In this document: one piece after another, positions 9,782-45,147 of the stretch
Position numbering within the stretch: position 1 is the stretch's first letter
How the letters are laid out: each line of letters starts with the position of its first letter
Source: Bacteroidaceae bacterium
Lineage (GTDB): Bacteria; Bacillota; Clostridia; Oscillospirales; Oscillospiraceae
Assembly: GCA_963593515.1 (NCBI GenBank)
Contig: CAVBAZ010000171.1
Location: 1-46,017 of the forward strand
DNA: 46,017 nt
Reading direction: 5' to 3'
The notes under the pieces: generated by a model
Told to the model about the DNA's origin: nothing
Seen by the model: only the letters and a program-made list of their open reading frames with translations
The model's database searches: none
Position numbers and translations under genes: made by a program

Positions 9782-9818
9782 AATCGTTCACCTCCTTGCA
9801 GATTACGATCTGTTCCGA

Positions 9819-11225: not shown

Positions 11226-11257
11226 TGTTCAGTCCTCCGTTTCTTTTATTTGAATAT

Positions 11258-11286
11258 AAAAAGAGCGTCCCATCTCTGAGACGCCC
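11258..11286 (-). terminator. Intrinsic terminator upstream of the S1-protein RBS
   Basis: Minus strand GGGCGTCTCA-GAGA-TGGGACGCTC-TTTTT. Confidence 0.7.
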
Positions 11287-11304
11287 ATTTTCTGGTGATG
11301 TATT

Positions 11305-12464: not shown

Positions 12465-12477
12465 TTGCTCACCACCG

Positions 12478-12537
12478 ATTTAACTTTCTTTTGGCATTAT
12501 AACATCGCTAAAGTTAAATGTCAATTTTTTAGTTAAA
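12478..12537 (-). promoter_or_regulatory. Consensus sigma-A promoter with flanking inverted-repeat operator
   Basis: TTGACA (12524-12519), 17 bp, TG-n-TATAAT (12501-12496); perfect IR ATTTAACTTT (12478-12487) / AAAGTTAAAT (12510-12519). Confidence 0.85.
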
Positions 12538-12546
12538 ATATTGAGT

Positions 12547-14427: not shown

Positions 14428-14441
14428 AATGCATTCCTCCT

Positions 14442-15197
14442 TTATATTCCCAGTTCTGCTTCTACAGCGGCAGTTTCAATGGTTTTGAGTGTAATATGCG
14501 GGCCAAGATACTCTCTTAGAAAAGTTGCCTGATCTTCAAAACAGAGCACTTCGAAATGCTTCGCGCTCATCTGTAGTGCCTCACGAAAGCGGATCAGCCG
14601 TGCGATGTCTCCGTCCAGATGTGAGAAAATACAGGTGTCTCCAATGCTGGCATCATACTCCATGAATCCCCGGTTATAGGATCGGATATCCGGATCAAAC
14701 AGCAGGTCAAGAAGCTTTTCGTTCCAGTCTGGGACGGTGAGCAATCTGAGCTGCCGGATGCCGTTTGCATTCATGGGCACGAAGTGGATATGCCGATAGA
14801 TACCATCGAACCGAAGCTCCAGACGCCGGTTTTTCTCCGACTCCAGCAGCGTGGTCAGCGCCGTGTCATAGGATTCGCCCAGCAGAATAGCGGAGTCGAT
14901 GCTCTGGAGGCCGGCATTCATGCGGGCAAGCTCCATCAGACTGTGGAGCGCTTTGAATTCTCCCATGCCGTTCCACTTCATCGCGGCATTCCGCGTGTTG
15001 TAAACGGCGTAACAGCCGCCGGGGTAAAACATGGCGCCAACGATACGCGTGAACATGGTTTTATCCACAACGACCCGGTCCACGCGGGAGGAGAACGGCT
15101 CATCTGTGCAGGAGCGACGGTTGTAGAACATATAGAGGATCTCAGCCGTCGCTTCATCCGGATCCTTGGGTTGGATGATACTGTTGCCGCACTGCAT
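14442..15197 (-). pseudogene. Chimeric ORF: short VirB4-like N-terminal fragment joined to the 3' part of an ICE hypothetical gene
   Basis: MQCGNSIIQPKDPDEATAEILYMFYNRRS...SRVDRVVVD then KTMFTRIVGAMFYPGGCYAVYNTR...; no RBS. The split is from my recall of clostridial ICE proteins and is unverified. Confidence 0.5.
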
Positions 15198-15618
15198 CCG
15201 CAAGCCGCTGTGTAATGCTGCGGGGAAGGCAAAGAAATCCGTAGCCATCGGTTGCATAGACCGCTCCGCTCATGCATTCAGCTCCGGAGCACTTTACGAC
15301 CCAATCAGTGATGGCATATTCCAGCTTCTTTGTTTTCTCGTCCAGCGTATAACGGATATATCCGAAGCGCTGGAGCGTATTCATGATTTCCAGAGCCTCT
15401 GTGCGGCTTTTAACGCCCAGAATACTCTTTAATCCAACCACGCCGCCGGACCACATTCCGGGCGCTACATCGTTTGTATAGCCACAGTAGTGGGTCTGCC
15501 CCTTGCGAAACGCTGCCCGTGAAGCCAGCTTCGCCCAAAAACCCATGATTCCTTTACCGACCGGCAAATGGATTCTGGATAGCTTGACCCAGTGGTATTT
15601 GAGCAGGCATTTCGGCAT
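15154..15618 (-). pseudogene. Conserved ICE hypothetical protein, apparently 3'-truncated
   Basis: GAAAGGAGG RBS, MPKCLLKYHWVKL...; runs into the frame of the next ORF after ITQRLAD. Confidence 0.55.
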
Positions 15619-15648
15619 GGCGGATTCCTCCTTTCTGCGGTTGGGCAT

Positions 15649-15684
15649 AAAAATAGGGCAGTCCCTGTGTCTTAGAGACTGCCC
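15649..15684 (-). terminator. Intrinsic terminator after DUF5348 gene
   Basis: Minus strand GGGCAGTCTCT-loop-AGGGACTGCCC-TATTTTT. Confidence 0.7.
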
Positions 15685-28313: not shown

Positions 28314-29567
28314 TTACATTTCCAACAGATTTTGCAGGGCGTTTCGATAGATGCGGCGCAGCCGCTCCATGTTGGCCAGTGTGATGTACTCGTTGCCCTC
28401 ATGCTCACGGCACTCCTCGCCGGGAAAGTTGGGGCCGAAGGCGATGATGTTGTCCATGGCGCGGGCATAGGTGCCGCCGCCGATAGCCAGGGGCTGAGAC
28501 ATGTCGCCGGTCTCCTGACGGTAGGCGTCCAGCAGGCGGGTCATGACCGGGCCGTTCTTATCCAGATACACCGGGCGCAGCGGGCTGGCGGGCAGCATGG
28601 TGAAGCCGTAGGTCTCCGCTGCGGTGCGCAGGGTATCCAGCACCGCCTGACCGTCGATGGTCTCCGGATGGCGGATGTCCACCGTCAGGCGGAGCTCTCC
28701 GTTCTCCACCCGCAGCATACCCACGTTCAGGGACAAGGGGCCGCTGTCGGGGGATCCCATGTTCAGGCCCAGACGCTTGCCGTACACATCGCCGCCGAAC
28801 AGGGCCGTATAGGCATCGGCAAATTTGCCGCCCTCGGTCTGGGACAGGTGGGTCAGCACCTTGTCGATGGCGTTTTCTCCGTTCCACGGAGCGCTGCCGT
28901 GGGCGGGCTTGCCCTCGGCGCTGTGGGTGCCGGAGACGGTCTCCACCACGCACTCATCCGGCACGATGTTGGGAGCGCTACCGCCGTGGGCGCTGAGGAT
29001 GCCGCTGCCCTCCAGGGGCATGGTGAGCGTCACCACGACGATGCCCTTCTCACAGTAGATGGCGGGAAAATCGCCGTCGGGGGTGATGCCGCAGGTGACC
29101 GGCTCCTCGTTGGCCACATAGGCCTCCATGTCGTACCAGTCGCCGTTTTCCTCCGTCTGGCCGAAGATCAGCCGGATGCGGCGGGGCATCTCCTTACCGG
29201 CGGCAGCGTAGGCGTCCGCCAGATCCTTGACGGCGTAGATGCTGATGATGGCCGGGCCTTTGTCGTCCAGCGTGCCGCGGCCATAAAGGCGGCCGTCCGC
29301 CACCGTTCCGGCGTAGGGAGGATAGTCCCAGCCCTTACCGGCGGGCACCACGTCCAGATGGCTCAGGACACCGATGATCTCGTCGCCCTGCCCCACCTCG
29401 GCATAGCCGTATTTTCCATCGGCGTTCTTCACGCGGAAGCCCAGCTTTTCGCACAACGCCAGCGTATACTCCAGCGCTTTGGCCGGGCCTGGGCCGTAGG
29501 GATAGCCGTCCTTGCCGTGATCGGCCACGGATTCGATGGCCAGCAGGCCCTTCAATGCTTCGATCAT
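28314..29567 (-). CDS. M20A Sapep/PepV-family dipeptidase
   Basis: HLDVVPAG, GRGTLDDKGP, TEE, PDGDFP, GGGTYAR; ATGA overlap with upstream gene. Confidence 0.92.
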   Translation of the reverse strand: MIEALKGLLAIESVADHGKDGYPYGPGPAKALEYTLALCEKLGFRVKNADGKYGYAEVGQGDEIIGVLSHLDVVPAGKGWDYPPYAGTVADGRLYGRGTLDDKGPAIISIYAVKDLADAYAAAGKEMPRRIRLIFGQTEENGDWYDMEAYVANEEPVTCGITPDGDFPAIYCEKGIVVVTLTMPLEGSGILSAHGGSAPNIVPDECVVETVSGTHSAEGKPAHGSAPWNGENAIDKVLTHLSQTEGGKFADAYTALFGGDVYGKRLGLNMGSPDSGPLSLNVGMLRVENGELRLTVDIRHPETIDGQAVLDTLRTAAETYGFTMLPASPLRPVYLDKNGPVMTRLLDAYRQETGDMSQPLAIGGGTYARAMDNIIAFGPNFPGEECREHEGNEYITLANMERLRRIYRNALQNLLEM

Positions 29568-31072
29568 ACGCTTACTCCATACAGTCCGGTATATTTCTCC
29601 GTCAGGTAATCCACATAGTAGTGGGGCGCAAAGGGTTCGCCGGTGGCGCCCCGCAGCAGCTCGTCCGCCGTCAGCAGCATGCCGTGGCGGTAGATCTTCT
29701 CCGTCAGCCACTGCTTCACCGGGGACAGGTCGCCCCGGGCGATGCAGGCGTTCACATCCAGCTCCCGCTCCAGCGCCGCCATGAACTGGGCGGAATAGGC
29801 GGTGCCCAGCGCGTAGCTGGGGAAGTAGCCGAAGGTGCCGTCGGCCCAGTGCATATCCTGAAGAACGCCGTGGGCGTCGTCGGGCACATCAACGCCCAAA
29901 TACTTCTTGTACAGCTCGTTCCACGCGGCGGGCAGGTCATCCACCGTCAGCTCATTGCGGAACAGCGCCTTTTCCAGTTCGTAGCGCACCAGCACATGGA
30001 AGGGGTAGGTCAGCTCGTCGGCATCGGTGCGGATCAGGCTGGGACGGGCCACATTGACGGCCCGGTAGAACATCTCCGGCGTGACGGATGCCATCTGCTC
30101 CGGGAACAGGCGGCACACCTCCGGGAAGATCAGGTCGCAGAAGGCGCGGCTGCGGGCGATATAGTTCTCCCACAGGCGGGACTGGCCCTCGTGAATGGCG
30201 GTGGTAGCGCCGTGGCCCATACAGGAGTGCAGCAGCTCCGGCGCGACGCCCAGCTCATACATGGCATGGCCGCTCTCGTGGACGACGGAGAACAGGTTGC
30301 TCAGCAGATCGTCCTCGAAATACTTGGTGGTGATGCGGACATCGTCACGGGAGAACTCCACCGTGAAGGGATGCTCTGACTCCCGCAGGACACAATGGGA
30401 CTTGTCAATGCCCATCACATCCATCAGATAGCCGGACAGCTCCTTCTGCTGCGGAATGGGGAAGGTGTTGTTCAGGAAGCCCATCTCCGGCTGAACGCCC
30501 TTCTGAATGATGGCGTGGAGCACCGGTGTCAGCTTCTCCCCCATCAGGTCAAAGAAGGGATCCAGCATGGCCTGGGTGCAGCCCTTCTCGAACTCGTTCA
30601 GCAGGGTGTCATAGACATCCGCGCCGGGGCGGATATAGTTGGCGTACTGGCGGCGGATCTCCACCATGTTGGCCAGATACGGCTTGAAGATAGAGAAATC
30701 GCTCTGCGCCTTGGCCAACTGCCAGTAGTGGCGGCCGGCGTTGGCGGCCTTCTCTGCCGCCATAACGGCCTCCTTGGGGACTTTTTCCTGCTTTTCCCGC
30801 TGCTCCCGCAGCTCCTCCACCTCGCGGCGGGTCTGGAAGTCCAGTTCATCCCGGCGCTCATACAGATCGGAGAGCAGCTGTCCGATGCGGGGATCCACGC
30901 TCATGCTGTGGATCTCACCGGCAATCAGCTCCATGGTGTCGCCGGTGGCGTCGGAGCCGCCGCCGGGCATGGAGGTATTGGCGTCATACGTCAGCAGATT
31001 GGCGACGTGGGCATAGGCGTGGAGCCTCTTCTGATAATCACGCAGCTCCTGTACTTGCTTTTCCAGTTCCAT
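29564..31072 (-). CDS. M32 carboxypeptidase
   Basis: HPF, DVRITT, HESGH, HEGQSR, IRTDADEL, GVLQDMHW, GYFPSYALG. Confidence 0.96.
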   Translation of the reverse strand: MELEKQVQELRDYQKRLHAYAHVANLLTYDANTSMPGGGSDATGDTMELIAGEIHSMSVDPRIGQLLSDLYERRDELDFQTRREVEELREQREKQEKVPKEAVMAAEKAANAGRHYWQLAKAQSDFSIFKPYLANMVEIRRQYANYIRPGADVYDTLLNEFEKGCTQAMLDPFFDLMGEKLTPVLHAIIQKGVQPEMGFLNNTFPIPQQKELSGYLMDVMGIDKSHCVLRESEHPFTVEFSRDDVRITTKYFEDDLLSNLFSVVHESGHAMYELGVAPELLHSCMGHGATTAIHEGQSRLWENYIARSRAFCDLIFPEVCRLFPEQMASVTPEMFYRAVNVARPSLIRTDADELTYPFHVLVRYELEKALFRNELTVDDLPAAWNELYKKYLGVDVPDDAHGVLQDMHWADGTFGYFPSYALGTAYSAQFMAALERELDVNACIARGDLSPVKQWLTEKIYRHGMLLTADELLRGATGEPFAPHYYVDYLTEKYTGLYGVSV

Positions 31073-31088
31073 GATCGTCCTTTCGTTA

Positions 31089-32057
31089 TTACAGGGTCTT
31101 GGCCTTCAGGCAGGCCACGAAATGTCCGGGCTCCACTTCCTCGAAGGGGATGTCACCCTGCGTGCACTCCTCCGTGGCGAAGGGGCAGCGGGCGGCGAAG
31201 CGGCAGCCGGGTTTGGGATTGATGGGGTTGGTGACCTCGCCCCGGATCAGCTGGGGCTTTTTGTTGCGCATGGAGATGCTGGGCACGGGGATGGCCGACA
31301 GCAGCGCCTTGGTGTAGGGGTGCAGCGGATCAACGAACAGGTGCTTGGACTCGCAGTACTCCACGCACTTGCCCAGATACATGACGGCGATCTGGTTGGA
31401 GATATGGCGCACCACCGACAGGTCGTGGGTGATGAACATATAGGTCAGGTTCCGCTCTTCCTGCAAGTCCATCAGCAGGTTCAGGATCTGGGCTTGGATG
31501 GACACATCCAGCGCGGATACCGGCTCGTCGCAGACGATGAACCGAGGATTCAGGGACAGGGCGCGGGCCACGCCGATACGCTGGCGGCGGCCGCCGTCCA
31601 GTTCGTGGGGATAAGCGCCGGACAGGCGCTCCGCCAGACCGACGGTGTCCATCAGCTCGGCCACCTTTTCGTACACCTCGCTGCTGGTCTTATAGATGCC
31701 CGCCACGATCAGCGGCTCGGCGATCAGCTCCTGCACGCTCATGCGGGGGTTCAAGCTGGCGTAGGGATCCTGGAATATCATCTGCATGTCGCGGCGGATC
31801 TTGGCCAGCTTCTTGGCCTTGTAATGGGTGATGTCCTCGCCGTCGTAGATGATGCGGCCGCTGGTCGGCTCGTGGAGCTTCAGCACTGTGCGGCCCAGCG
31901 TGGACTTGCCGCAGCCGGACTCGCCCACCACGCCCAGCGTCTCGCCCTCGTTGATCTTCAGGGTGATGCCGTCCACCGCGTGAAGGGTGGCGTTCTTGTT
32001 GATCTGAAAGTATTTGCACAGGTTGTCCATTTCGATCAGGGGATGCTTCTGGTTCAT
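31089..32057 (-). CDS. Oligo/dipeptide ABC transporter ATPase (OppF/DppF)
   Basis: [40 protein letters not shown]. Confidence 0.96.
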
Positions 32058-32059
32058 GG

Positions 32060-33172
32060 TCAGACCTCCTCCTTTTCATCAAACAGGAAGCACTTGATGT
32101 GCAGGCCATCCACATCGCAGGTCTCGGGATGGCACTGGCGGCAGCGCTCCGTGGCGTGGGGACAGCGGGGAGAGAAATAGCAGCCCTGGGGCAGATCGGT
32201 GGGATCGGGCATCATGCCGTCGATGGGGTGCAGGCGTCTTTCGTCGGCCTCCAAGTTGGGGATGGAGTTGAACAGGCCCACCGTGTAGGGGTGATGCTTA
32301 TCGCCGGTGAACACCTGCTCCACTGTGCCGTACTCGATGATCTCGCCGGCGTACATGACGGCCACCTTGTCGCAGGTCTGGGCCACGATGCCCAGATCGT
32401 GGGTGATCATGATCATGGAGGTATCCAGCTTCTCCTGCAGCTCCATCATCATGGCCAGTACCTGTGCCTGAATGGTCACATCCAGCGCCGTGGTGGGCTC
32501 GTCGGCGATCAGCAGCATGGGGTTGCAGGCCAGCGCGATGGCGATGACCACGCGCTGCTTCATGCCGCCGGAGAACTGATGGGGATAGTCCTTCTTGCGG
32601 CTGGGCATGATGCCCACCATCTCAAGAACCTCCTCCACGCGGGCCTCCAGCTCGGCACGGGTATGGCCCTCGTTGTGCATCTGGAGGGCCTCCAAAATCT
32701 GATCGCCCACCGTCAGCACCGGGTTCAGCGCCGTCATGGGATCCTGGAAGATCATGGAGATCTTCTCGCCCCGGATGCCCAGCATCTGCTTATTATTCAA
32801 ATAGGTAGGGGCGGGCAGCTCCACAGCGGGCGATTCCGCGCTCTCGCCTTCCGGCGTTCCCTCTGGAGCCTCCGGCGTGTGGGCGGCAATGTAGTCCTCC
32901 TCGGAGATGGCGGTGCCGTCCTTGTCACGGATGGCAAGGATATCCTCGCCGTCGAACCAGATGGAGCCGCGGTTGGTGCGGGTGGTGCGCTCCGGCAGCA
33001 GGCCCAGAATGGACAGGGCCGTGGTGGTCTTGCCCGCGCCGGTCTCGCCCACCAGTCCCAGCGTCTCGCCCTTGTCCAACGTCAGGGAAATGCCGTTGAC
33101 GGCATGTACCGTTTCCAGATCGGTTCGGTAGTCAATCTGCAGGTCTTTGATCTTCAATAAAGCTTCACTCAT
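32060..33172 (-). CDS. Oligo/dipeptide ABC transporter ATPase (OppD/DppD)
   Basis: [35 protein letters not shown]. Confidence 0.96.
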
Positions 33173-33186
33173 GATTCGTCCCTCCC

Positions 33187-34065
33187 TTAATCCTTCAGCT
33201 TGGGATCCAGTGCGTCACGCAGGCCGTCACCGGCCAGATTGAAGCTCAGCGCCGCGATGACGATGAACAGGCCGGGGATGTACAGCAGATGGGGCGCGGA
33301 GAACATATAGGTCTCGGCGTCAGACAGCAGCGCGCCCCATTCGGGAGCGGGCGGCTGCACGCCCATGCCCAGAAAGCTCAGGCCGGAGGCGGACAGGATC
33401 ATGGTGGCCACGTTCATGGTGGCGGTCACGATGATGGGGCCCAGCGCATTGGGGATGACGTATTTCAGGATGATGCGCATGTCGCTGGTGCCGTAGGAGC
33501 GGGCGGCCTCGATATAGTCCTCCTCCACCACGCCCAGCACCACCGAGCGCACCATACGGATGATGCCGGGGACGCAGGACACGGTAATGGCGATCAGCAG
33601 GTTGCGGAGGTTGGCGCCCAGCGCCGCCACAACGGCAAGGCTCAGCAGGATGGGCGGCACGGTCATGATGACATCGGTGATGCGCATGATGACGTTGTCC
33701 ACCCAGCCGCCGTAGTAGGCGGCCACGGCGCCCAGCAGGCCGCCGATGACCATGGACACGATGGTGGTGATGATGCCGATGGCCAGCGAGTAGCGGGAGC
33801 CGTGGATGATGCGGGCGAACAGGTCGCGGCCCGCTTCATCGGTGCCGAACCAGTGGGCCGCGCTGGGGCCCTGCAGGCGGTTGGGGATATCCTGCGCGAT
33901 GGCGTTTTCATAGGGAACGATCACATCGGCAAAGATGGCGATGCCCACCACGAAGATCAGCAGTACAAGGCCCAGCATGGCGGTCTTGCTCTTGCGGAAG
34001 CGCCGCCAGATCTCTTTGGCCTGACTGTTTTTCTTGCTCTTTTTGATCACTTTTTTCTCGTTCAT
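33187..34065 (-). CDS. Peptide ABC permease (OppC/DppC)
   Basis: HWFGTDEAGRD, YIEAARSYG, LSFLGMGVQPP..EWG, GDGLRDALDPK. Confidence 0.96.
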   Translation of the reverse strand: MNEKKVIKKSKKNSQAKEIWRRFRKSKTAMLGLVLLIFVVGIAIFADVIVPYENAIAQDIPNRLQGPSAAHWFGTDEAGRDLFARIIHGSRYSLAIGIITTIVSMVIGGLLGAVAAYYGGWVDNVIMRITDVIMTVPPILLSLAVVAALGANLRNLLIAITVSCVPGIIRMVRSVVLGVVEEDYIEAARSYGTSDMRIILKYVIPNALGPIIVTATMNVATMILSASGLSFLGMGVQPPAPEWGALLSDAETYMFSAPHLLYIPGLFIVIAALSFNLAGDGLRDALDPKLKD

Positions 34066-34087
34066 CAGTGTGCTCTCCTTTCCGCCG

Positions 34088-35020
34088 TCAGGACTTATAC
34101 AGTGCCTTGATGCGCGGGTCGATATAGGCGTAGAGGATATCGACGACGAGCATTACGATACAGAACAGCGCAGCCAGAAACAGTGTGGCCGCCAGCACCA
34201 CAGGGGTGTCCTTCTGCCGGATGGATTTAACGATCAGCATACCGATGCCCGGCATGCCGAACACCGTCTCGCAGATAACGGCGCCGCCCAGAGAGGCGCC
34301 GAAGCTCATGCCCATGGAGGTGATCACCGGCAGCAGGGCGTTGCGCAGGGCGTGCTTCCAGATGACGACCTTTTCCGGCACGCCCTTGCTGCGGGCGGTG
34401 CGGATGTAGTCCTGACGTATCGTTTCCAGCATGGTGGAGCGGGTCAGACGCATATCGCTGGCGGCGCTGCCCAGTGCCAGCGTGATGGTGGGCAGGATGT
34501 AGCCGGTCCAGCTGTCGATGCCGCTGAAGGGGAGCCAGCCCAGCTTCAGGGCGAAAAGGATCATCAGCATCAGGCCCAGCCAGAAGCCGGGCATGGCGGA
34601 GAAGAACATGGCCAGCGTGGTCAGCACGTTATCCAGCCATGAATACTGCTTCACGGCGGAGACAATGCCCAGCACCACGCCCAGACCCACACCCAGAATG
34701 GTGGAGGTGATGGCCAGCGTCAGTGTGCAGGGGAAGCGGGACATGATGGACTGGAACACCGGCTCGCCGTTGCGGTACGAGGTTCCGAAGTCGAAGTGCA
34801 GGACGATGCCCTTCAGGTAATTGAAGAACTGCTCGAAGAACGGCAGATCCGCGCCCAGCTTGTGGTTCAGCGCGGCGATGTCCTCCGGCTTGGCGGTGAT
34901 GCCAAGGATCAGCTCGGCGGGGGTACCCGGCGTCAGGTACATGATGGCGTACACCAGAAAAATGGCGCCAAGCAGAACCGGTATGGTCAACAGGATCCGC
35001 TTGATAACGTATTTGTACAT
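34088..35020 (-). CDS. Peptide ABC permease (OppB/DppB)
   Basis: DFGTSY, QDYIRTARSKG, HALRNAL, ETVFGMPGIG, DILYAYIDPR. Confidence 0.96.
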   Translation of the reverse strand: MYKYVIKRILLTIPVLLGAIFLVYAIMYLTPGTPAELILGITAKPEDIAALNHKLGADLPFFEQFFNYLKGIVLHFDFGTSYRNGEPVFQSIMSRFPCTLTLAITSTILGVGLGVVLGIVSAVKQYSWLDNVLTTLAMFFSAMPGFWLGLMLMILFALKLGWLPFSGIDSWTGYILPTITLALGSAASDMRLTRSTMLETIRQDYIRTARSKGVPEKVVIWKHALRNALLPVITSMGMSFGASLGGAVICETVFGMPGIGMLIVKSIRQKDTPVVLAATLFLAALFCIVMLVVDILYAYIDPRIKALYKS

Positions 35021-35070
35021 ACGATCTCCTCCCTGTTATCTGCGGAGCGTGGCTCCGGGGTGTTAAGGTC

Positions 35071-35156
35071 ATTTTACTTTCGTTTTGCAAAAATGTCAAT
35101 AATTTTATAAAATCTCTCGAAAAAATATTGCAAAATACCGAAAGATTTGATAATAT
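35071..35156. promoter_or_regulatory. Back-to-back promoters with a central palindrome
   Basis: Minus: TTGACA (35099-35094), 17 bp, TAAAAT. Plus: TTGCAA (35128-35133), 17 bp, TG-n-TAATAT. Palindrome ATTTTATAAAAT at 35102-35113. Confidence 0.7.
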
Positions 35157-35249
35157 GTAGTCGAAGAGAAGGAACACCCCTGATTTTTAGTCGATGTTTC
35201 CCTTTTTTCGGTCTGTGTAATCGTAATAATGTATATAGGAGGATGAAGC

Positions 35250-37199
35250 ATGAGCGAAATGAAATGGCCCTATCCTGCCAAGGTGAGCCAAGTCAACCGC
35301 ATGGAGGCGGATGTGATCGTGCTGGGCGGCGGCATTGCCGGATGCATGGCCGCCATCAACGCCGCCAAACGCGGCCAGAGCGTGATCCTGGTGGAAAAGG
35401 GCGCCACCAAGCGTTCCGGCGCAGGCGGCAGCGGCTGCGACCACTGGGAAAGCGCCGCCACCAACCCCTGCTCCGGTGTCTCTCCGGAGGATCTGGTGCA
35501 GGCCATGCTGGACGACAACGACGGCTACAACAACGGCATCTCTCATTATATAGAATGCCGCGAGGGCTGGGATCACCTGCAGGAGATTGAGAAGATGGGC
35601 GGCAAGATCCGGGATACCGAGGACGAGTTCAAGGGCGCGGACTTCCGGGATGAAAAGACCAAGCTGATGTTCGCCTATGACTATAAGAACAAGTTCACCA
35701 TCCGCATCTGGGGCACCACCTTCAAGCCCGCTATGGAGAAGGAGTGCCGCCGTCTGGGCGTGAAGATCGTGGATCGTGTCATGGTCACCTCCCTGCTGAC
35801 CGAGGGCGGCAAGAACGGTGCCAAGTGCGTGGGCGCTACCGGCGTTCACACCCGCACCGGCGAGTTCTATGTGTTCTCCTGCAAGGCGGCCATCATCACC
35901 ATGAGCCGTCCCGCCCGCGTGTGGCTGTTCTCCGCCGCCTATCCCGGCCTGTGCGAGTTCCGCCCCATGTGCACCATCGGCGACGGCCACGCCATGGGCT
36001 GGCGTGCCGGTGCGGAGTTCAACATGATGGAAAAATCCGTCCGGGCTGAGTTTTCCTCCGCCGGACGCTCCTTCCCGCCCTATTCCGCGGGCAACAACCA
36101 CAACACCTGGTATCCCGCCTCCCTCATCGACGCCGAGGGCAAGGAGATCCCCTACGCCGACCGTGACGGCAACATCCTGACCAATGTGGCCCAGCGCTTC
36201 CAGCCTGCCAAGGGTCAGCACTATTTCCTGAAGGGCGGCAACATCGAGCAGGCCAAGTACGCCTACGACGGCCCGGAGACCCTGCCCTATGACAAGCTGA
36301 AGGAGATGGGCTACAAGCTGCCCTTCTACGCTGATCTGTCCAACATGCCGGAGCTGGAGCGGAAGGTTATTTGGGGTATGATGGTTGGCCAGGAGGGCAA
36401 GACCAATGTGCCCGTATACAAGAACTTCACCGAGGCGGGCTTCGATCCCACCAAGGACGTGCTGCAGTGCTACGGCGTGGGCTGGACCAGCGCCGAGTTC
36501 CTGCCTCAGGAGCGCCAGCTGTTCGGCATGCCCGGCGGCTTCATGAACGACTGGGATCTGATGACCAACATCCCCGGCCTGTTCGTGGCGGGCGACTCCC
36601 TGTTCTCCTCCAACTGCTTCGGCCATGCCGCCTCCACCGGCGCTTACGCCGGACGTAAGGCCGCGGCCTACGCTGCCAAGCAGGAGGGTATCATCGCTCC
36701 CTGCGAGACCCAGATCGCAAACGAGATGGAGCGCGTTTACGCGCCGCTGGGCGGCGACCCCATCAACGGCGTCAGCTGGAAGGAGCTGAACGAGGCCATC
36801 GCCAAGGCCATGCAGAACTACTGCGGCGAGCAGAAGCGGGACGAGCTGCTGCTGTCCGGTGTAGAGCTGCTGGAGCGCTATGAAAAGGAGATCGTGCCCC
36901 ACACCTATGCCGCCAACCCCCACGAGCTGATGCGTCTGCTGGAGGTGTTCGACATCCTGACGGTGGCCCAGATCATCCTGCAAGCCTGCCTGGCCCGCCA
37001 CCAGACCTGCCCCAAGCTGGAGTTCTACCGCACCGACGACGACGGCAAGGCCATGGCTCCCTTCATCTGCATCCACAACGACGGCGAAAAGGTCGTGGCC
37101 CGCGAGGTGCCGCTTGACTACGCCGGTAATATCAAGGAAAATTACGAGAAGCACAATCAGGACTATATGGCAGAAATGGCAAAGGAGGCGCAGGCATGA
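35250..37199 (+). CDS. FAD-dependent oxidoreductase, AprA-like (SdhA/FrdA/AprA superfamily), substrate unknown
   Basis: VLGGGIAG, EKG...RSGA, GDGHAMGWRAGA, TNIPGLFVAGD, C-terminal helical domain. Confidence 0.88.
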   Translation: MSEMKWPYPAKVSQVNRMEADVIVLGGGIAGCMAAINAAKRGQSVILVEKGATKRSGAGGSGCDHWESAATNPCSGVSPEDLVQAMLDDNDGYNNGISHYIECREGWDHLQEIEKMGGKIRDTEDEFKGADFRDEKTKLMFAYDYKNKFTIRIWGTTFKPAMEKECRRLGVKIVDRVMVTSLLTEGGKNGAKCVGATGVHTRTGEFYVFSCKAAIITMSRPARVWLFSAAYPGLCEFRPMCTIGDGHAMGWRAGAEFNMMEKSVRAEFSSAGRSFPPYSAGNNHNTWYPASLIDAEGKEIPYADRDGNILTNVAQRFQPAKGQHYFLKGGNIEQAKYAYDGPETLPYDKLKEMGYKLPFYADLSNMPELERKVIWGMMVGQEGKTNVPVYKNFTEAGFDPTKDVLQCYGVGWTSAEFLPQERQLFGMPGGFMNDWDLMTNIPGLFVAGDSLFSSNCFGHAASTGAYAGRKAAAYAAKQEGIIAPCETQIANEMERVYAPLGGDPINGVSWKELNEAIAKAMQNYCGEQKRDELLLSGVELLERYEKEIVPHTYAANPHELMRLLEVFDILTVAQIILQACLARHQTCPKLEFYRTDDDGKAMAPFICIHNDGEKVVAREVPLDYAGNIKENYEKHNQDYMAEMAKEAQA

Positions 37200-37489
37200 A
37201 AGAGATCAAGGAATTTGGCTTCCGTCAGACGCCGCCTGCCACGCCGCTGCGGTTCGACGCGGAGAAGTGCATCGGCTGCAACCGCTGCATGGAGGCGTGC
37301 ATGATCGACGTGATGACCCCCGGCGAAAAGGGCAGCCATCCCGTGGTGTCCTATCCCGACGAGTGCTGGTACTGCGGCTGCTGCGTGATGGAGTGCCCCA
37401 CCGGCGCCATCAGCCTGCACCATCCGCTGATGAACCAGACCCGCTGGGTGGAGAAGGCCAGTCTGCTGAAAAACAGAAAGGAGAACTAA
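37196..37489 (+). CDS. AprB-like 2x[4Fe-4S] ferredoxin
   Basis: CIGCNRCMEAC and PDECWYCGCCVMECP; ATGA overlap with the flavoprotein. Confidence 0.93.
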   Translation: MKEIKEFGFRQTPPATPLRFDAEKCIGCNRCMEACMIDVMTPGEKGSHPVVSYPDECWYCGCCVMECPTGAISLHHPLMNQTRWVEKASLLKNRKEN

Positions 37490-37493
37490 GCGT

Positions 37494-38507
37494 ATGGCAA
37501 ATTTTGAGCTGCTGAAGGAGCTGACCCAGGCATGGGGCGTGGCAGGCCGGGAAAAGGCCGTGCGGGCCATCGTGCTGCGCGAGCTGGAGGGCCATGTGGA
37601 CAACGCCTATGTGGACAACATCGGCAACATCATCGCCGTCAAGCACGGTAAGGGCGGCCCCGACAGCAAGAAGATCATGCTCTCCGCCCATATGGACGAG
37701 ATCGGCCTTCAGGTGAAGAAGATCGAGTCCGACGGCCGCATCAAGGTATGCCATGTGGGCTGGGTCTGGACCTCCGCCCTGTATAACGATCAGGTGGTGT
37801 TCCAGAACGGCACCATCGGCGTGGTGGGCTGCGACGGCAAGATCGAGGATGCCAAGAACGACAGCGGCAAGCTGTACATCGACATCGGCTGCACCAGCAA
37901 GGAGGACACCGAGAAGTACGTCAAGGTGGGCGATTACGCCGGTTTTGTGGGCCCGTGGTACGAGCTGCAGAACGGCCGCATCAGCGCCAAGACCTTCGAC
38001 GACCGGGTGGGCTGCTTCATGCTGCTGGAGGCCTTGAAGCGGAACAAGGGCGAGTGCCCCAACGATGTGTACTACGTCTTCTCCGTGCAGGAGGAGGTGG
38101 GCTGCCGCGGCGCCGTTACCGCCGCCCATCAGATCCGCCCCGACATCGGCATCAGCGTGGACGTGACCCCCGACCATGCCTATCCCTGCGATCTGGAGGG
38201 CTGCAACGCCGTGGGCGAGGGCATCAGCGTCACGCTGGGCGACCCCAGCGCCATGCTGGACGAGGATCTGGTCAACGAGATGCTGGCCTGCTGCGAGGAG
38301 AACGGCATCCGCTATCAGCGGGGCGTGATGGATCGCGGCGGCACCGATGCCAGCTCCATGAACCAGTCCGGCGACGGCGTCCGGGTGGCCGGTATCGCCG
38401 TGGTGGACCGCTATCCCCACAGCAAGTGCTCCGTCATCGCCAAGGATGACGTGACCGCCGGTATCGACCTGCTGGACAAGTACACCCACCGCGTATTCAA
38501 ATTCTGA
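37494..38507 (+). CDS. M42-family aminopeptidase
   Basis: AHMDEIG, LYIDIG, FDDRVG, QEEVGCRGA, GGTDA, YPHS. Confidence 0.93.
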   Translation: MANFELLKELTQAWGVAGREKAVRAIVLRELEGHVDNAYVDNIGNIIAVKHGKGGPDSKKIMLSAHMDEIGLQVKKIESDGRIKVCHVGWVWTSALYNDQVVFQNGTIGVVGCDGKIEDAKNDSGKLYIDIGCTSKEDTEKYVKVGDYAGFVGPWYELQNGRISAKTFDDRVGCFMLLEALKRNKGECPNDVYYVFSVQEEVGCRGAVTAAHQIRPDIGISVDVTPDHAYPCDLEGCNAVGEGISVTLGDPSAMLDEDLVNEMLACCEENGIRYQRGVMDRGGTDASSMNQSGDGVRVAGIAVVDRYPHSKCSVIAKDDVTAGIDLLDKYTHRVFKF

Positions 38508-38571
38508 GCAAGTTTTCCCGTATCTCCACGCCGGAATGGCGTCAAAATAAAAAATGAAAAGGAGACACCCC

Positions 38572-40092
38572 ATGAAAAAGTTTCTTGCACTGGTGCTGGC
38601 TCTGGCCATGGCACTGAGTCTGGTCGCCTGCGGCGGCAACGGCGGCAATAACGCCTCTGCCGGCGATGGCACCAGCCTGACCATCGCAGTCGATCAGGAC
38701 TACGAGACCCTGCATCCCGTGAACACCAGCCTGAACGTTGAGACCAACCTGGTCAACCAGATCTACGACTATCTGGCCATCGACAACCCCGACGATCCCA
38801 CCGGCGACATGATCCCCCGCATCGCCGAGCGCTGGGAGGTCAGCGAGGACGGCCTGTGCTACACCTTCTATCTGCGCAAGGGCATCAAGTTCCACGACGG
38901 CTCTGAGCTGACCGCTGACGATATCGGCTTCAGCCTGGATCTGTGCAAAGCCTCTGAGTATCAGGGCGCCATGGTGGACGGCATGGATCACTGGGAAGTG
39001 GTGGATCCCTACACCATCAATGTGTATACCGCCACCGTGTACGCCCCCTTCCTGCGCAGCGTGGTGGACGTGCCCATCGGCTGCAAGGCCTACTATGAGT
39101 CCGTGGACGAGAGCACCTTCGCCCAGCAGCCCGTCGGCTGCGGCCCCTACAAGTTCGTCAGCCACAATCAGGGCGATTCCTTCGTGCTGGAGGCCTTTGA
39201 GGACTACTACGGCGGCGCTCCCGCCATCAAGAACGTGACCTTCAAGGTCATTGCCGACGCGGCCTCCATGTCCATCGGTCTGCAGTCCGGCGGTATTGAC
39301 TTCGCCGAGGTGGACGCTTCCGTGCTGTCCACCCTGCAGAGCGCGGCCAATGTGGAGATCACCACCGCCGAGCAGACCGCTTTCTACTTCATCGCCATGA
39401 ACACCGAGAAGGAACCTTACAGCAATGTGAAGTTCCGTCAGGCCATCAACTACGCCATCGACCGCGAAGCCCTGGTCACCGCCGTACTGGAGGGTGAGGG
39501 CGAGGTCAACTCCAACCTGCTGACCCCCGACCGCGAGGGTTATTCCGACAGCCAGAAGCAGTACACCTATGATCCCGAGCAGGCCAAGGCCCTGCTGGCC
39601 GAGTGCGGCTATGCCGACGGCTACGATCTGGGCACCTTCATCGTGGCCGAGAGCTACAAGCTGCTGGCCCAGGTGATCCAGTCCGATCTGGCCAAGGTGG
39701 GCCTGACCTGCAATCTGGAGATCCTGGAGTTCAACGCCTATCTGGACAAGCTGATGGACGGCGACTTCGGCATGACCTGCCTGAACATGGCGCTGCAGGG
39801 CGACACCCAGCAGCTGTCTCTGGCGCTGACCAAGGATTACATCGGTATGGCCAACAACGCCCGCTGGTCTGATCCCAAGGTGGAGGAGCTGTTCCAGAAG
39901 GCCGTCGCCACCGTGGACGAGGCCGAGCGCGAGGCCGTGTACAACGAGCTGTTCTCCTATGTTCAGGAGCAGGCCGTGTACTGCGTCCTGTGCAACCCCA
40001 CGCTGCTGTTCGCCCACAAGACCGGTCTGGAGACCGGCACCATCGCGCTGGAGGGCGTGTACTATCTGCAGAACTTCCAGTGGAACGCCTGA
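38572..40092 (+). CDS. Peptide ABC substrate-binding lipoprotein (family 5)
   Basis: LVAC lipobox, YTFYLRKGIKFHDG, PVGCGPYK, RQAINYAIDR. Confidence 0.95.
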   Translation: MKKFLALVLALAMALSLVACGGNGGNNASAGDGTSLTIAVDQDYETLHPVNTSLNVETNLVNQIYDYLAIDNPDDPTGDMIPRIAERWEVSEDGLCYTFYLRKGIKFHDGSELTADDIGFSLDLCKASEYQGAMVDGMDHWEVVDPYTINVYTATVYAPFLRSVVDVPIGCKAYYESVDESTFAQQPVGCGPYKFVSHNQGDSFVLEAFEDYYGGAPAIKNVTFKVIADAASMSIGLQSGGIDFAEVDASVLSTLQSAANVEITTAEQTAFYFIAMNTEKEPYSNVKFRQAINYAIDREALVTAVLEGEGEVNSNLLTPDREGYSDSQKQYTYDPEQAKALLAECGYADGYDLGTFIVAESYKLLAQVIQSDLAKVGLTCNLEILEFNAYLDKLMDGDFGMTCLNMALQGDTQQLSLALTKDYIGMANNARWSDPKVEELFQKAVATVDEAEREAVYNELFSYVQEQAVYCVLCNPTLLFAHKTGLETGTIALEGVYYLQNFQWNA

Positions 40093-40129
40093 GCATGATC
40101 TGAGTCTTCTCAATTACCCCTCTCATAAA

Positions 40130-40164
40130 GAAAAGGAGGATGTCCGTCGGACATCCTCCTTTTC
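40130..40164. terminator. Bidirectional terminator
   Basis: AAAAGGAGGATGTCCG-T-CGGACATCCTCCTTTT. Confidence 0.88.
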
Positions 40165-40185
40165 TATCTATTTAATATGTGATCC

Positions 40186-41430
40186 TCAGCGGGCGGCCAT
40201 AAAGGCCTCGATCTCCTCCACGGTGCGGGGGATGGAAGCGGTCAGGTTCTCGCAGCCTGTCTCGGTGACAAGGCAGTTGTCCTCCAGCCGGAAGCCGATG
40301 CCCCACGGCTCGTAGTAAACACCCACGTCCACGCAGAACACCATGCCCGCCTCGGTGAGACGGCTGTAATCGATCACGTCGTGGACGTCGAAGCCGATAT
40401 GGTGGGCGCCGTCGTGCCACATGATCTTGCGGATATCCTTGAAGTCGTCGATGATCCCCAGCTCCTTCAGCTGGCCGAAGCAGTACTCGCGGGCCAGCTG
40501 GTCGATGGAGCGCATGGGCATGCCGGGCTTGATGATGGAGAACATATGCTCCGAGGTGTTGTAGATGCACTGGTACAGGGCCTTTTGCCGCTCAGTAAAT
40601 TTGCCGTTGGCGGGCCATGTGCGGGACACGTCGTTGCACTCGTAGTCCTGCCACGCGCCCACATCGTTCAGCACCATGTCGCCATCGGCCACAGTGCCGG
40701 TATAGTCGTAGTAATGGATGCAGAAATTATTCTGGCCGCTGCAAATAATGGACGGGAAGGCCGGGGTCAGCACACCCCGCTTGGCCAGCGCGTAGTCGAA
40801 CTCCGCCTTCAGCTCATACTCCCTCATACCGGGGCGGCAGGCGGTCATCATGGCTTCGATACCGGCGCGGGTGATGGGCACGGCGCGGCGCATGGCGTCG
40901 ATCTCGCAGGGCTTTTTGATGGTGCGCAGCGTCCGCATACGGGAGCGCAGGTCGCCCAGCCGCAGCCACGGCCACACAGCGGCGGCGCGGGCCGCAAACT
41001 GCCGTGCCTCATTGGGCTGCTCATCCAGAGACTCCCGGTCGAAGTCCAGCCACAGCCGGTCAAGGGTCTGGTCGGCGGCCAGCCGGTCGAAATCATCCTC
41101 AAAGCTTTCCACATACCGGCAGTCGGTGAAGCCATAGCGCTCCGGCACGTCCGCCGCGTGGATCCGGCGGCCGAACCACCGCTCCTGCATGGGATCCTCC
41201 TGCTGCAAATAGATGGCCTCCTCCACCGCGCCGCCGCGCTTGACCGCCAGATAGACGAGGTTCTCCTCCATGCCGGTCAGGTACAGGAAATTGCGGTTGG
41301 CAAAGAAGGGATAATAGGCATCGGCGCTCTGCCGGGGCGCGTGTCCGGCAAACACCACCGCGACGCTGTTCTCCGGCAGCGTCTCCAGCAGCTGGCGGCG
41401 GTTCTCTTCATAAAAGGTTTTGGGTAACAT
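40186..41430 (-). CDS. Xaa-Pro aminopeptidase (M24B, PepP-like)
   Basis: NRNFLYLTG, RTIKKPCEI, IHY, NDVG, DVSRTWP, HHIGFDVHD, FRLEDN. Confidence 0.92.
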   Translation of the reverse strand: MLPKTFYEENRRQLLETLPENSVAVVFAGHAPRQSADAYYPFFANRNFLYLTGMEENLVYLAVKRGGAVEEAIYLQQEDPMQERWFGRRIHAADVPERYGFTDCRYVESFEDDFDRLAADQTLDRLWLDFDRESLDEQPNEARQFAARAAAVWPWLRLGDLRSRMRTLRTIKKPCEIDAMRRAVPITRAGIEAMMTACRPGMREYELKAEFDYALAKRGVLTPAFPSIICSGQNNFCIHYYDYTGTVADGDMVLNDVGAWQDYECNDVSRTWPANGKFTERQKALYQCIYNTSEHMFSIIKPGMPMRSIDQLAREYCFGQLKELGIIDDFKDIRKIMWHDGAHHIGFDVHDVIDYSRLTEAGMVFCVDVGVYYEPWGIGFRLEDNCLVTETGCENLTASIPRTVEEIEAFMAAR

Positions 41431-41581
41431 ACAGCAGCCCTCCTGTTATCAATATCGTGGCGCACCTTGTACAGGTTCCGGCGTTATTATACCATTTCCG
41501 TTTCCGGAATGTCCAGCTGTCCCGGCGTGATTTTACAATATTTTTTGATAATTTGCAAAACAAGGAGCGCGGTTTCCATCG

Positions 41582-41667
41582 GATTTTCTAAAATCTGCTT
41601 GTGTGCCGGTAAGATATGATGATATTTTATAAAATCTGTTGATTTTTCATAGAATATTTGGTATGAT
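41582..41667. promoter_or_regulatory. gntR promoter with two palindromic candidate operators
   Basis: GATTTTCTAAAATC (41582-41595), ATTTTATAAAATCT (41624-41637); TTGATT, 17 bp, TG-n-TATGAT (41639-41667). Confidence 0.65.
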
Positions 41668-41705
41668 ATTTCTGAAAAGAAAAATGAAAAAGGAAGTATC
41701 TACTT

Positions 41706-42365
41706 ATGGCTGGACAAACCCTTTCCGAACAGATCTATGACGAGCTGTACCATGACATTACCGACCAGCGGCTGGTATGCGGCCAGAAGCTGACGCTGAA
41801 GGTGCTGAAGGACCGCTTCAATGTCAGCCACACCCCCATCCGCGAGGCGCTGATGCGTCTGGCGGAGAACGGACTGGTGACCTACTACTCCAACTGCGGC
41901 GTTACGGTGACGGAGTTTACCGAGGCGGACATCCGCCAGCTGTACCAGTTCATCGGTGAGCTGGACTCCATGGCTATTCTCTTCTGCCAGAACAATTTCA
42001 ATCAGGTGCCCCTGCTGATGGATCTGCAGGACGTGGTGGAGAGCGGCAGCAAGGCGCTGGCCGCAGGCGACCGGGCCGCGTGGAAGGAGCAGTCCGAGCA
42101 GTTCCATGTGGTGTTCTACCGCCACGCCCAGAACTGCTACCTCAACGAAGCCGCCGCCAAGCTGCGGGCACGGCTGGAGGTGCTGTCCTGCATGTACTAC
42201 TATCAGGATCAGAATGTGGAGCTGATCCATCAGGGACACGTTACCATGTATGAGCTGGTGAAGGCCGGTGAATTTCAGAAGGCGGCTGACGAGATGCGCC
42301 AGCATTTGCAGCGGGACATGGCCTTCGCCCTGAAGGCTTACGCCTACCAGACCCGCAATCACTGA
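41706..42365 (+). CDS. GntR/FadR-family regulator (FCD domain)
   Basis: LSEQIYDEL...FNVSHTPIREALMRL; C-terminal FH...H...M..H. Confidence 0.93.
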   Translation: MAGQTLSEQIYDELYHDITDQRLVCGQKLTLKVLKDRFNVSHTPIREALMRLAENGLVTYYSNCGVTVTEFTEADIRQLYQFIGELDSMAILFCQNNFNQVPLLMDLQDVVESGSKALAAGDRAAWKEQSEQFHVVFYRHAQNCYLNEAAAKLRARLEVLSCMYYYQDQNVELIHQGHVTMYELVKAGEFQKAADEMRQHLQRDMAFALKAYAYQTRNH

Positions 42366-42375
42366 GGAGGACATT

Positions 42376-43452
42376 ATGCTGCATTATGACCGGCTGAAAG
42401 CCGTTTTGAAGAACATGGAGCTGTGCGGCCTGCGGCAGGTGATCATCTCCGATCCCGGCGCCATGCAGTACCTGCTGGGGCAGAGCGTGGACGCCATGGA
42501 GCGCTGCGGCATCCTGCTGCTGCGGGAGGACGGCCAGCTTCACGCCTTTATGAACCTGCTGTTCTGCTTCCCTCCCGTGGAGGGCGTCACGCTGCACCAG
42601 TACCGGGACGGGCAGAACGTATACGAAATGATCGCGGCGCTGCTGCTGCCGGGCGCGGTGGGCATCGACCGCAGCTGGCCCAGCGGCCACACCATCGCGC
42701 TGATGGCCCAGCGCAGCGACATCCATCCCGTTCCCGGCTCCGACCCGGTGGACATGGCCATGGCCTGCAAGGACGCACGGGAGCAGCAGCTCCTGCTGGA
42801 GGCCGGTGCGGTCAACGACAAGGCCATTGCCTACGGCATCCGCCACATTGCCCCGGAACGCAGCGAGGCGGAGCTGGCTCAGATGATCGACGATTTCTTT
42901 ATTGCCAGCGGCGGCACGCAGGTGGGACAGTATCAGATCGTCTGCTACGGCCCCAACGCCGCCCAGCCCCACCATATGCCGGACGGCACGCTGCCCCGGC
43001 CCGGCGACGCGGTGCTGCTGGATCTGGTATGCCCCATCAATGGCTATTGGTGCGACATGACCCGCACGGTCTTTTACCGGCAGGTCAGCGACCGGCACCG
43101 GCACATCTATGAGGTAGTGCGGGAGGCCCAGCAGGCCGGTATCGACTTTGTCCGGCCCGGTGTCCGCATGTGTGACATCGACCACGCGGTGCGCTCCGTC
43201 ATCGAAGCCGCCGGATTCGACGATGCCTTCATCACCCGCACGGGCCACGGCATCGGCACCCATGTGCACGAGCCCCCTCAGGTCAGCAGCGACTGCACCG
43301 TTATCGCCCAGCCGGGCATGGTATTCTCCATTGAACCGGGTATCTACCTGCCCGGCGATACCGGCGTGCGGATCGAGGATCTGGTGCTGGTAACGGAGGA
43401 TGGCTGCCGGGTGCTGACCCACTATCCCAAGGAGCTGCAAGTCGTGGAATGA
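42376..43452 (+). CDS. Xaa-Pro dipeptidase/aminopeptidase (M24B, PepQ/YpdF-like)
   Basis: PHH, DL, DMTRT, GHGIG..VHE, FSIEPGIY, GVRIEDLV. Confidence 0.94.
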   Translation: MLHYDRLKAVLKNMELCGLRQVIISDPGAMQYLLGQSVDAMERCGILLLREDGQLHAFMNLLFCFPPVEGVTLHQYRDGQNVYEMIAALLLPGAVGIDRSWPSGHTIALMAQRSDIHPVPGSDPVDMAMACKDAREQQLLLEAGAVNDKAIAYGIRHIAPERSEAELAQMIDDFFIASGGTQVGQYQIVCYGPNAAQPHHMPDGTLPRPGDAVLLDLVCPINGYWCDMTRTVFYRQVSDRHRHIYEVVREAQQAGIDFVRPGVRMCDIDHAVRSVIEAAGFDDAFITRTGHGIGTHVHEPPQVSSDCTVIAQPGMVFSIEPGIYLPGDTGVRIEDLVLVTEDGCRVLTHYPKELQVVE

Positions 43453-44432: not shown

Positions 44433-44527
44433 AGCTACCGCCGCCATCGGGTGTGGCAGCAGCGATTTTGCCCGATAGCGTCCAGTTCCTCTGATTGTCA
44501 ACTAATCCCACACGCACTCGCAGTCGC

Positions 44528-45084
44528 TCCACAGCCTACAGGCGCCCACAGACCATGAAGAATGGGCACGAGTGGTGGAAGTATGTCTATGATGAATTCT
44601 ACGACTGCGTGATCTGCCCCGAATACCAGCCGCTGAAATACAGCACGACAAATCGTGACGGATACCGGGAATACAAGAGTGATCCGGAGAAATGCGCCAA
44701 CTGTCCGACCAGAGAGCGGTGCACTCGTTCCAAGGACTGTGTAAAGACCGTACAGTGGCATATCTGGAAGGACTATGAGGAGCTGGCGGACGATGCCAGA
44801 TATACGCCTGAGTACAGGGAGCTTTACAAGAAACGCAAAGAGACCATTGAACGGGTCTTTGCCGATGCCAAGGAAAAACACGCGATGCGTTATACGCAAT
44901 ACAGAGGCTTGACCCAGGTCACAAACTGGGTGAAGCTTAAGTTTGCTGCAATGAACTTGAAAAAGTTGGCCACATGGAAATGGAGAGATCTGTTACCTTC
45001 GTTTCGCTTTGCTATTTTTTTCGCTCATATATGTTCGAGCCCCTGTCTGTTCCTGATTACAGACTGGGTTCCTCGACAGACTGG
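44528..45084 (+). mobile_element. IS1182-family remnant (C-terminal transposase and right end)
   Basis: YVYDEFYDCVICP, YREYKSDP..C..CP...CT, YKKRKETIERVFADAKEKH..R; end ...CTCGACAGACTG abuts a hairpin; 5' part missing. Confidence 0.85.
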
Positions 45085-45147
45085 GGGAGGTTCATAGCAC
45101 CTCCCCTCTTACCATTTTTATGTGGTAGTTGATACCCTTGACCATAA

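Follow-up and report, generated by a model that had tools for sequence, protein, structure and literature searches.

What does a flavoprotein–ferredoxin pair built like adenosine 5′-phosphosulfate (APS) reductase, AprAB, do at the head of an operon for peptide import? The question is raised by positions 28314–43452 of contig CAVBAZ010000171.1 (assembly GCA_963593515.1, Bacteroidaceae bacterium, placed by GTDB in the Oscillospiraceae); the window, as used here, is the whole 46,017-nucleotide stretch that was analyzed. The locus holds 13 genes: those for an M20A peptidase, an M32 carboxypeptidase and the OppF, OppD, OppC and OppB components of an ATP-binding cassette (ABC) importer on the minus strand, those for the flavin adenine dinucleotide (FAD) protein, the ferredoxin, an M42 aminopeptidase and a family-5 binding protein (SBP_bac_5) on the plus strand, and those for an M24B peptidase, a GntR-FCD regulator and a second M24B peptidase (Table 1). 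The split importer, five peptidases, GntR and FAD/ferredoxin pair listed in a first-pass annotation of this DNA are all present at closely similar coordinates, and the translational coupling claimed for the pair is evident from an ATGA overlap at 37196–37199. A known scaffold is found in a conserved, previously undescribed catabolic module, which is likely to be fed by peptides, a modified residue being freed from them and then undergoing a redox step. Our tentative proposal for that step, held at slightly less than an even chance, is a two-electron reaction of the FAD/ferredoxin pair at the amine-bearing carbon of a non-standard residue released by M42, rather than at a sulfo group. No characterization of the flavoprotein family or its genomic context was found in the literature searched, outside which most subscription journals lie.

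Linkage to peptidase and importer genes

Homologous loci were taken from the best 80 of 223 GTDB matches and the best 80 of 495 metagenome matches; the resulting counts include kin and favor close homologues. Among the 53 GTDB loci that extend 4 kb or more to both sides of the flavoprotein gene, M42 is present in 41, Opp in 38 and both in 36, and 48 contain M42 or a peptide/amino-acid importer, in agreement with the co-conservation with peptidase and importer genes that the first-pass annotation had put up for checking. After 88% de-replication of the GTDB and metagenome loci together, M42 or an importer occurs in 43 of 47 and M42 with Opp in 24 of 47. The association persists despite gene shuffling, M42 with Opp recurring, in more than one gene order, in the two Bacillota subclades as well as in Chloroflexota. 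M32, M20A and M24 peptidases are variable add-ons (12, 10 and 10 of the 53 loci, respectively), and trimming of the peptide from both ends, as had been suggested, is therefore not a property of the conserved core. The ferredoxin gene, counted by tblastn since the scorer of open reading frames that we used for gene calls is blind to this Cys-rich protein, directly follows the flavoprotein gene in 78 of 79 GTDB loci, the remaining locus ending at a contig end. A 196-residue VWA-like protein also recurs as a neighbor in these loci and is uninformative.

Each core gene is single-copy within the assembly, and the module is accessory: the flavoprotein has an orthologue in 2 of 36 congeneric genomes (one other has a 42% relative), in 0 of 24 genomes of other families of the order, and in 5 of 398 other Clostridia. 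The M42 aminopeptidase has the metal-ligand motifs of its family and a member's score against PF05343, but lies below all named NCBIfam cut-offs, with a Thermotoga enzyme as its nearest solved relative; at 51–58% identity it occurs in exactly the five flavoprotein genomes of the 398 Clostridia, on the same contigs, the next M42 proteins being at most 43% identical. In some lineages Opp is replaced by an APC permease, an SSF symporter or a Liv-type ABC system. Of the 78 Opp loci, 68 have M42, and 8 of the other 10 stop within ~2 kb downstream of the flavoprotein gene; of the 39 APC/SSF loci only 1 has it, and in that locus the symporter is not adjacent. The linked permeases appear to be dedicated, because the APC clade has 0 matches and the SSF clade 1 (34%) in 399 Clostridia genomes; the linked SSFs form one group of 47–73% identity across phyla. 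The loss of M42 where an APC or SSF permease takes over suggests that the substrate occurs both free and in peptides. Cultured carriers of the module include Emergencia timonensis SN18, Lutispora thermophila DSM 19022 and Fusibacter paucivorans DSM 12116.

The extra peptidases vary freely between loci (M29, amidohydrolase, M20, M24, M32) and some loci lack both M42 and an importer, as might be expected if the substrate of the flavoprotein were an ordinary amino acid or a small metabolite, with the peptidases and Opp serving general nitrogen scavenging under a shared regulator. We consider this unlikely, as the M42, APC and SSF clades are confined to flavoprotein loci in the genomes sampled, and the rarity of the module (5/398 Clostridia, 2/36 congeners) fits a specialized substrate.

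Flavoprotein family and active site

The flavoprotein scores far under the cut-offs of all named families (NF006131, 170 of 587 bits; NF005331, 105.4 of 557; TIGR02061, 66.9 of 641.75), its best score against the SdhA, FrdA and NadB families being 69.5 bits with cut-offs above 450, and 16 relatives scanned against NF006131 are likewise all below cut-off (best 323). A search of 50% representatives returned a distinct group of ~650-residue proteins at 38–59% identity, followed by ~550–590-residue proteins at 29–36%, and a FastTree tree of 92 rows groups the 80 de-replicated close homologues in a single clade (support 100). This clade, assigned from record titles to Bacillota, Chloroflexota, Spirochaetota, Planctomycetota and Acidobacteriota, is named here the DHWE subfamily after D64-H65-W66-E67, which are invariant in the 72 rows covering them; Gly57 occupies the position of the covalent-FAD His in the same number (72/72). 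Invariant in 80 of 80 rows are R152, E236-F237-R238, N282-N283-H284-N285, E382, W412, E421-R422, F425-G426 and C456. The closest named records (98%) are metagenome-assembled genomes of Oscillospiraceae, and the Atlas matches are unnamed FAD-protein clusters only.

Asn74 and His398 are the sulfite-binding positions of AprA, and Arg265 is a further functional position. In a profile alignment to 1jnr and 8a8o, Asn74 corresponds to E67 and Trp234 to F237, and His398 has no counterpart, no His occurring within residues 420–432 in any of the 80 rows; Arg265 aligns ambiguously to E267 or F268, and an R or K at 265, present in 73 of 80 rows, could take its place. The structural model (predicted local distance difference test score 94.8) matches 3′-phosphoadenosine 5′-phosphosulfate (PAPS) and APS reductases best, then SdhA/FrdA. 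With AprAB (1JNR, 2FJA, 3GYX) the protein has in common the fold, the Gly replacing the covalent-FAD His and a ferredoxin partner; it differs in lying far below the family cut-off, in its short β-subunit, in the replacement of Asn74 by Glu and the absence of His398, and no sat or dsrAB-type family was found. The top match is the PAPS reductase of Methanothermococcus thermolithotrophicus (8A8O; Foldseek E 2e-32; Z 44.1, root-mean-square deviation 3.3, 515 residues aligned), from which our protein is set apart by 21–24% identity, ~80 extra residues, F237-R238 in place of W206-Y207, loss of the sulfite-binding Asn and His positions, the lack of detected sulfate-activation genes and the linkage to peptide import. 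The 8A8O enzyme is, like the present pair, a soluble flavoprotein with a small 2×[4Fe–4S] subunit and no membrane partner; PMC10322725 describes an N5-attack mechanism, FAD binding by W206/Y207 and a bridging, electron-transferring Trp of the small subunit, which is kept here.

The flavoprotein is, as judged from these comparisons, AprAB-like in architecture and not a member of AprA (67 of 642 bits, Asn74 to Glu, His398 absent, no sat found), in line with the earlier reading that it is no true AprA. Models for Sat, PAPS_reduct/CysD and NIR_SIR gave no match in the 93% complete genome, with 5, 14 and 11 of 14 controls positive, respectively, the genome-wide search not extending to qmo. That it is merely a divergent APS or PAPS reductase, as the same fold and the AprB-like partner might imply, is very improbable given the scores (67/642 bits for TIGR02061, 105/557 for NF005331), the 21–24% structural identity, the lack of detected Sat, CysD and sulfite reductase, and the lost catalytic positions.

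More can be said for the alternative that ferredoxin supplies the electrons to reduce an oxidized-sulfur or sulfated residue, namely methionine or cysteine sulfoxide, S-sulfocysteine or tyrosine O-sulfate. Among solved structures, PAPS and APS reductases are the nearest; C456 is invariant; a sulfoxide could be protonated by an acid near the flavin; sulfatase genes are neighbors in one Lachnospiraceae lineage and in L126; and cysK is upstream in L167/L168. With sulfo compounds, the SO3 group would go to FAD N5 by analogy to AprA. We nevertheless judge such a substrate unlikely. The sulfite-binding Asn and His of AprA, both of which the PRK08275 type keeps, are lost (Asn74 replaced by Glu, no His in 420–432 in 80 rows), which weakens the oxidized-sulfur substrate offered by the first-pass annotation, and the predicted acidic flavin face argues against sulfite-type chemistry; no siroheme sulfite reductase to use the sulfite was found in the genome, 4 of the 5 carriers examined have MsrA, and sulfur-assimilation genes are not a conserved part of the loci.

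The PRK08275/NF006131 flavoproteins, which we take to be AsfA-like, are the best NCBIfam match (170 bits) and resemble the present system in D64 and E382 and in a FAD–ferredoxin pair placed by an importer and GntR. They are ~25–32% identical, keep the AprA Asn and His, and in aerobes have nitrate/sulfonate-type ABC and HEAT-repeat neighbors without M42 or a dedicated permease; sulfonate-type ABC and HEAT-repeat genes are found in L197 and L198 and not among the recurring neighbors of the DHWE subfamily. Of the proposed analogy to AsfAB, only the architecture stands, with AsfA represented here by the PRK08275 type and by a review (PMC4267179, for the role of AsfA) and not by its own sequence. 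E67 and the loops are specific to the DHWE subfamily, and D64 and E382 are common to the PRK08275 type and the wider clan. NadB, SdhA and FrdA belong to the same superfamily at 14–19% structural identity, and their dicarboxylate-binding His/Arg set and covalent His, mapped by sequence, are not kept; NadB provides a precedent for C–N redox chemistry on an amino acid in an SdhA-type fold. Across the wide AprA-like clan, a G-x-D-H near residue 64 and the Glu at 382 are retained and the substrate loops are strongly variable; the clan looks like a diversified, unstudied oxidoreductase family. The predicted flavoproteins of L028–L030, L033, L068, L070, L116 and L188–L192 are 750–790 residues long, with a C-terminal extension of more than 100 residues into or over the ferredoxin start, and the L111 homologue (G159:C32:16313-18235) has one TAA within the match.

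Substrate and direction of the proposed redox step

In the predicted reaction scheme, the Opp-type importer would bring in peptides carrying a non-standard amino acid; M42, judging from its exclusive linkage and its loss alongside permeases, would free the modified residue; and the extra peptidases in the window would digest the rest of the peptide. Electrons would pass between the two clusters and the non-covalent FAD via W58, as in AprAB, for a two-electron step at the amine-bearing carbon of the residue. The W58 position is W in 108, Y in 32 and I in 2 of 142 ferredoxins, and an electron-transfer role of this Trp in an AprB-like subunit is given in PMC10322725. The direction leans very slightly toward reduction, in which low-potential ferredoxin would be the donor and the step would serve Clostridia as an electron sink, because neither a membrane anchor nor an Etf gene is conserved near the flavoprotein. 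Among the same ferredoxins, 31 lack one cluster Cys, all in an environmental clade (L067, L076, L117–L163) in which the second Cys of the second cluster motif is replaced by Glu, Asp or Ser, which suggests a [3Fe–4S] or carboxylate-ligated cluster; this may raise the potential and favor oxidation in that clade.

A pyroglutamate substrate would share the peptide-fed scheme: M42 would deblock pyroglutamyl peptides, the flavoprotein would oxidize the Cα–N bond to the 2-oxoglutaramate lactam, and an ω-amidase would open it, a route that, unlike 5-oxoprolinase, would use no ATP. In the Liv-type variant (L044/L045/L138), the binding protein matches 8WCH at E 2.6e-69, the next match being at 1e-10, and 8WCH is SAR11_0655 with L-pyroglutamate (PMC11485210 and its preprint). 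All four plasmid relatives of this protein examined adjoin pxpB/C, an oxoprolinase-family gene or a putative hydro-lyase gene, two ~40% Bacillota relatives likewise lie by oxoprolinase-type or hydro-lyase genes, a nitrilase-family amidase gene adjoins the flavoprotein gene in L015, L016 and L037, and searches of 5 carriers gave no pxpA in 3 of them. However, the Liv binding protein falls in a separate, long-branched subclade in which both Arg positions of the oxoprolinase-linked (pxp) group are changed, one to Glu/Asp; the variant is confined to one lineage; 59–67% orthologues occur in five genomes without the flavoprotein; pxpA is present in the other two carriers (Lutispora-type); and the amidase of genome G000 is unlinked to the flavoprotein locus. 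We rate pyroglutamate as unlikely, a shade more so than oxidized sulfur. Less probable again is an altered aromatic amino acid, namely tyrosine bearing a halo, nitro or other substituent, that would be restored to its parent and fed to aromatic fermentation. The indolepyruvate oxidoreductase genes iorAB occur in 6 loci, co-directional with opp in L018, and a tyrosine phenol-lyase is over cut-off in L043; the iorAB count falls to 3 of 47 de-replicated loci, comes without a background rate, and concerns genes that amino-acid fermenters cluster anyway. The aromatic and oxidized-sulfur substrates, too, would enter by the peptide-fed route.

The reaction at an amine-bearing carbon is preferred on weak hints that converge on an amine-bearing non-standard amino acid: the amino-acid class of the alternative permeases, the acidic invariant residues and the acid-for-Arg changes in the Liv protein. 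The invariant D64, E67 and E382, predicted to lie near the flavin, would favor an amine or an imine, such as that of a lysine-type residue N-substituted in modified or damaged protein. Several observations weigh against it. Neither M42 nor an importer is found in 5 of the 53 loci, and the loci have no conserved downstream catabolic enzyme. The identity matrices do correlate, a point in its favor, but only modestly (rho 0.39 for FAD–M42 and 0.36 for FAD–OppA, with kin not independent). D64 and E382 may be general, because the PRK08275 type and the wider clan have them too; the nearness of the residues to the flavin is deduced from alignments to 1jnr and 8a8o and not from model coordinates; and the invariant basic residues R152, R238, H284 and R422 are also in the site. 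The accessible parts of PMC9501902 and bioRxiv 10.64898/2026.06.11.731642 contain no link of the flavoprotein family to carboxymethyl-lysine, an N-substituted lysine. Finally, the nearest solved relatives of the linked SSF are choline transporters, but only 1 of 6 cage aromatics is kept. A quaternary ammonium substrate (trimethyl-lysine) was dropped on this last comparison, made with SLC5A7, whose six-aromatic ammonium cage is described in PMC11589582.

In a complete genome, the region G458:C1:2221000-2286000 (L011, L214, L223, L226, L229) holds two paralogous flavoprotein genes ~30 kb apart, three GntR genes, many peptidase genes, a hydantoinase/oxoprolinase A-type gene, a RidA operon and, adjoining proC, a gene for a glycyl-radical enzyme that we presume to be HypD-like; the region reads as a large island devoted to modified amino acids. 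Two flavoprotein paralogues are likewise present in L015. In L291:1432-8307, a different SdhA-fold flavoprotein shares an operon with an M24 peptidase, a pyridoxal-phosphate enzyme, GntR and a SAR11_0655-like Liv importer, apparently a parallel orphan module.

Locus layout, regulation and implications

The genes form two divergent pairs of transcription units, oppBCDF-M32-M20A versus FAD-ferredoxin-M42-oppA, and the aminopeptidase P-like gene versus gntR-M24B. The M32 and M20A genes overlap by ATGA (29564–29567), with the M20A start likely at 29567 rather than 29711, and OppA likely starts at 38572; its nearest solved relatives are of the HbpA/DppA type. Metal-ligand motifs are present in all five peptidases, with Asp368 of the 40186–41430 enzyme at the position of a usual Glu ligand in M24B. 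The OppD-type ATPase carries an acidic, Pro-rich insertion of ~45 residues missing in most homologues (328–332 residues).

Table 1. Features of the locus at positions 28314–43452
Feature	Position	Strand	Evidence or remark
M20A PepV-like dipeptidase, variable add-on	28314..29567	-	TIGR01887 370 bits, over cut-off; 10/53 loci
M32 carboxypeptidase, variable add-on	29564..31072	-	PF02074 6e-166; HESGH motif; 12/53 loci
OppF-type ATPase	31089..32057	-	
OppD-type ATPase	32060..33172	-	
OppC-type permease	33187..34065	-	
OppB-type permease	34088..35020	-	
Sigma-70-like promoter match (11/12) facing oppB	35071..35099	-	Consensus match only
Palindrome ATTTTATAAAAT, candidate GntR operator	35102..35113		Motif search; weaker copy ~35125-35136
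AprA/SdhA-fold flavoprotein, 649 residues, DHWE subfamily, core	35250..37199	+	
AprB-like 2×[4Fe–4S] ferredoxin, 97 residues, W58 at electron-transfer position, core	37196..37489	+	
M42 aminopeptidase, apparently dedicated; core when importer is Opp	37494..38507	+	PF05343 260 bits
Family-5 solute-binding lipoprotein, core	38572..40092	+	PF00496
Terminator-like hairpin, 17 pairs, between convergent genes	40129..40165		
M24B aminopeptidase P-like, variable add-on	40186..41430	-	PF00557 and PF05195 (AMP_N)
Operator-like site ATTTTCTAAAAT, one mismatch to palindrome	41583..41594		
Candidate operator palindrome ATTTTATAAAAT upstream of gntR	41624..41635		
GntR-FCD regulator, putative palindrome binder	41706..42365	+	GntR in 31/53 loci
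M24B PepQ/YpdF-like peptidase, variable add-on	42376..43452	+	

Both divergent promoters carry a 12-bp palindrome, ATTTT-RY-AAAAT, missing from the first-pass annotation. The window has 4 matches against 0.01 expected; the sites at 35102, 41583 and 41624 are 3 of 5 matches genome-wide, and those at 35102 and 41624 are the top two position-weight-matrix sites of the genome. In homologous loci the exact palindrome lies within 300 nt upstream in 34 of 60 cases in which the flavoprotein gene leads its operon and 1 of 18 in which it is internal (shuffle rate 0.09%), pairs spaced 21 bp are found in several loci, and sites also lie beside gntR genes in other carrier genomes. GntR probably binds the palindrome and would thereby repress both divergent promoters; the shared site ties the M24B-gntR-M24B block on the right to the core. 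Five carrier genomes have 6–13 sites each against 0–5 for a reversed control, most of them coding or unrelated; one site precedes an aminotransferase gene (L201), another lies between a nitrilase-family amidase gene and a RidA operon (L223), and no further regulon member was found genome-wide in G000. In nine environmental loci (L118, L121–L123, L127, L132, L135, L139, L140), GntR is replaced by a ~450-residue winged-helix/TPR regulator encoded divergently from the flavoprotein.

Outside the locus, a transposase fragment (PF13751) lies just to the right at 44495–45097 (+), where the GC content drops, and a block of lower GC content at 4717–15650 (-), with a VirD4-like coupling protein (12547–14361) and a thioester-domain SpaA-repeat adhesin (4717–8523), is probably part of a conjugative element.

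How anaerobes handle modified residues in dietary and decaying protein is poorly mapped, and PMC9501902 states that little has been reported on microbial degradation pathways for carboxymethyl-lysine. The module offers four independent handles on one substrate, namely the binding protein, a regulator with a predicted operator, a peptidase that appears dedicated to it, and two single-gene permeases. Such flavoprotein genes should not be read as aprA or sdhA markers. It is quite possible, though slightly more doubtful than the C–N reaction by itself, that they mark an undescribed anaerobic pathway, present in at least five phyla from gut and sediment, in which a modified or damaged amino acid from protein undergoes C–N redox chemistry on a repurposed APS-reductase scaffold, and that the subfamilies of the clan each serve a different imported substrate. 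If the chemistry is not sulfur-based, the AprA scaffold would be extended to a new reaction.

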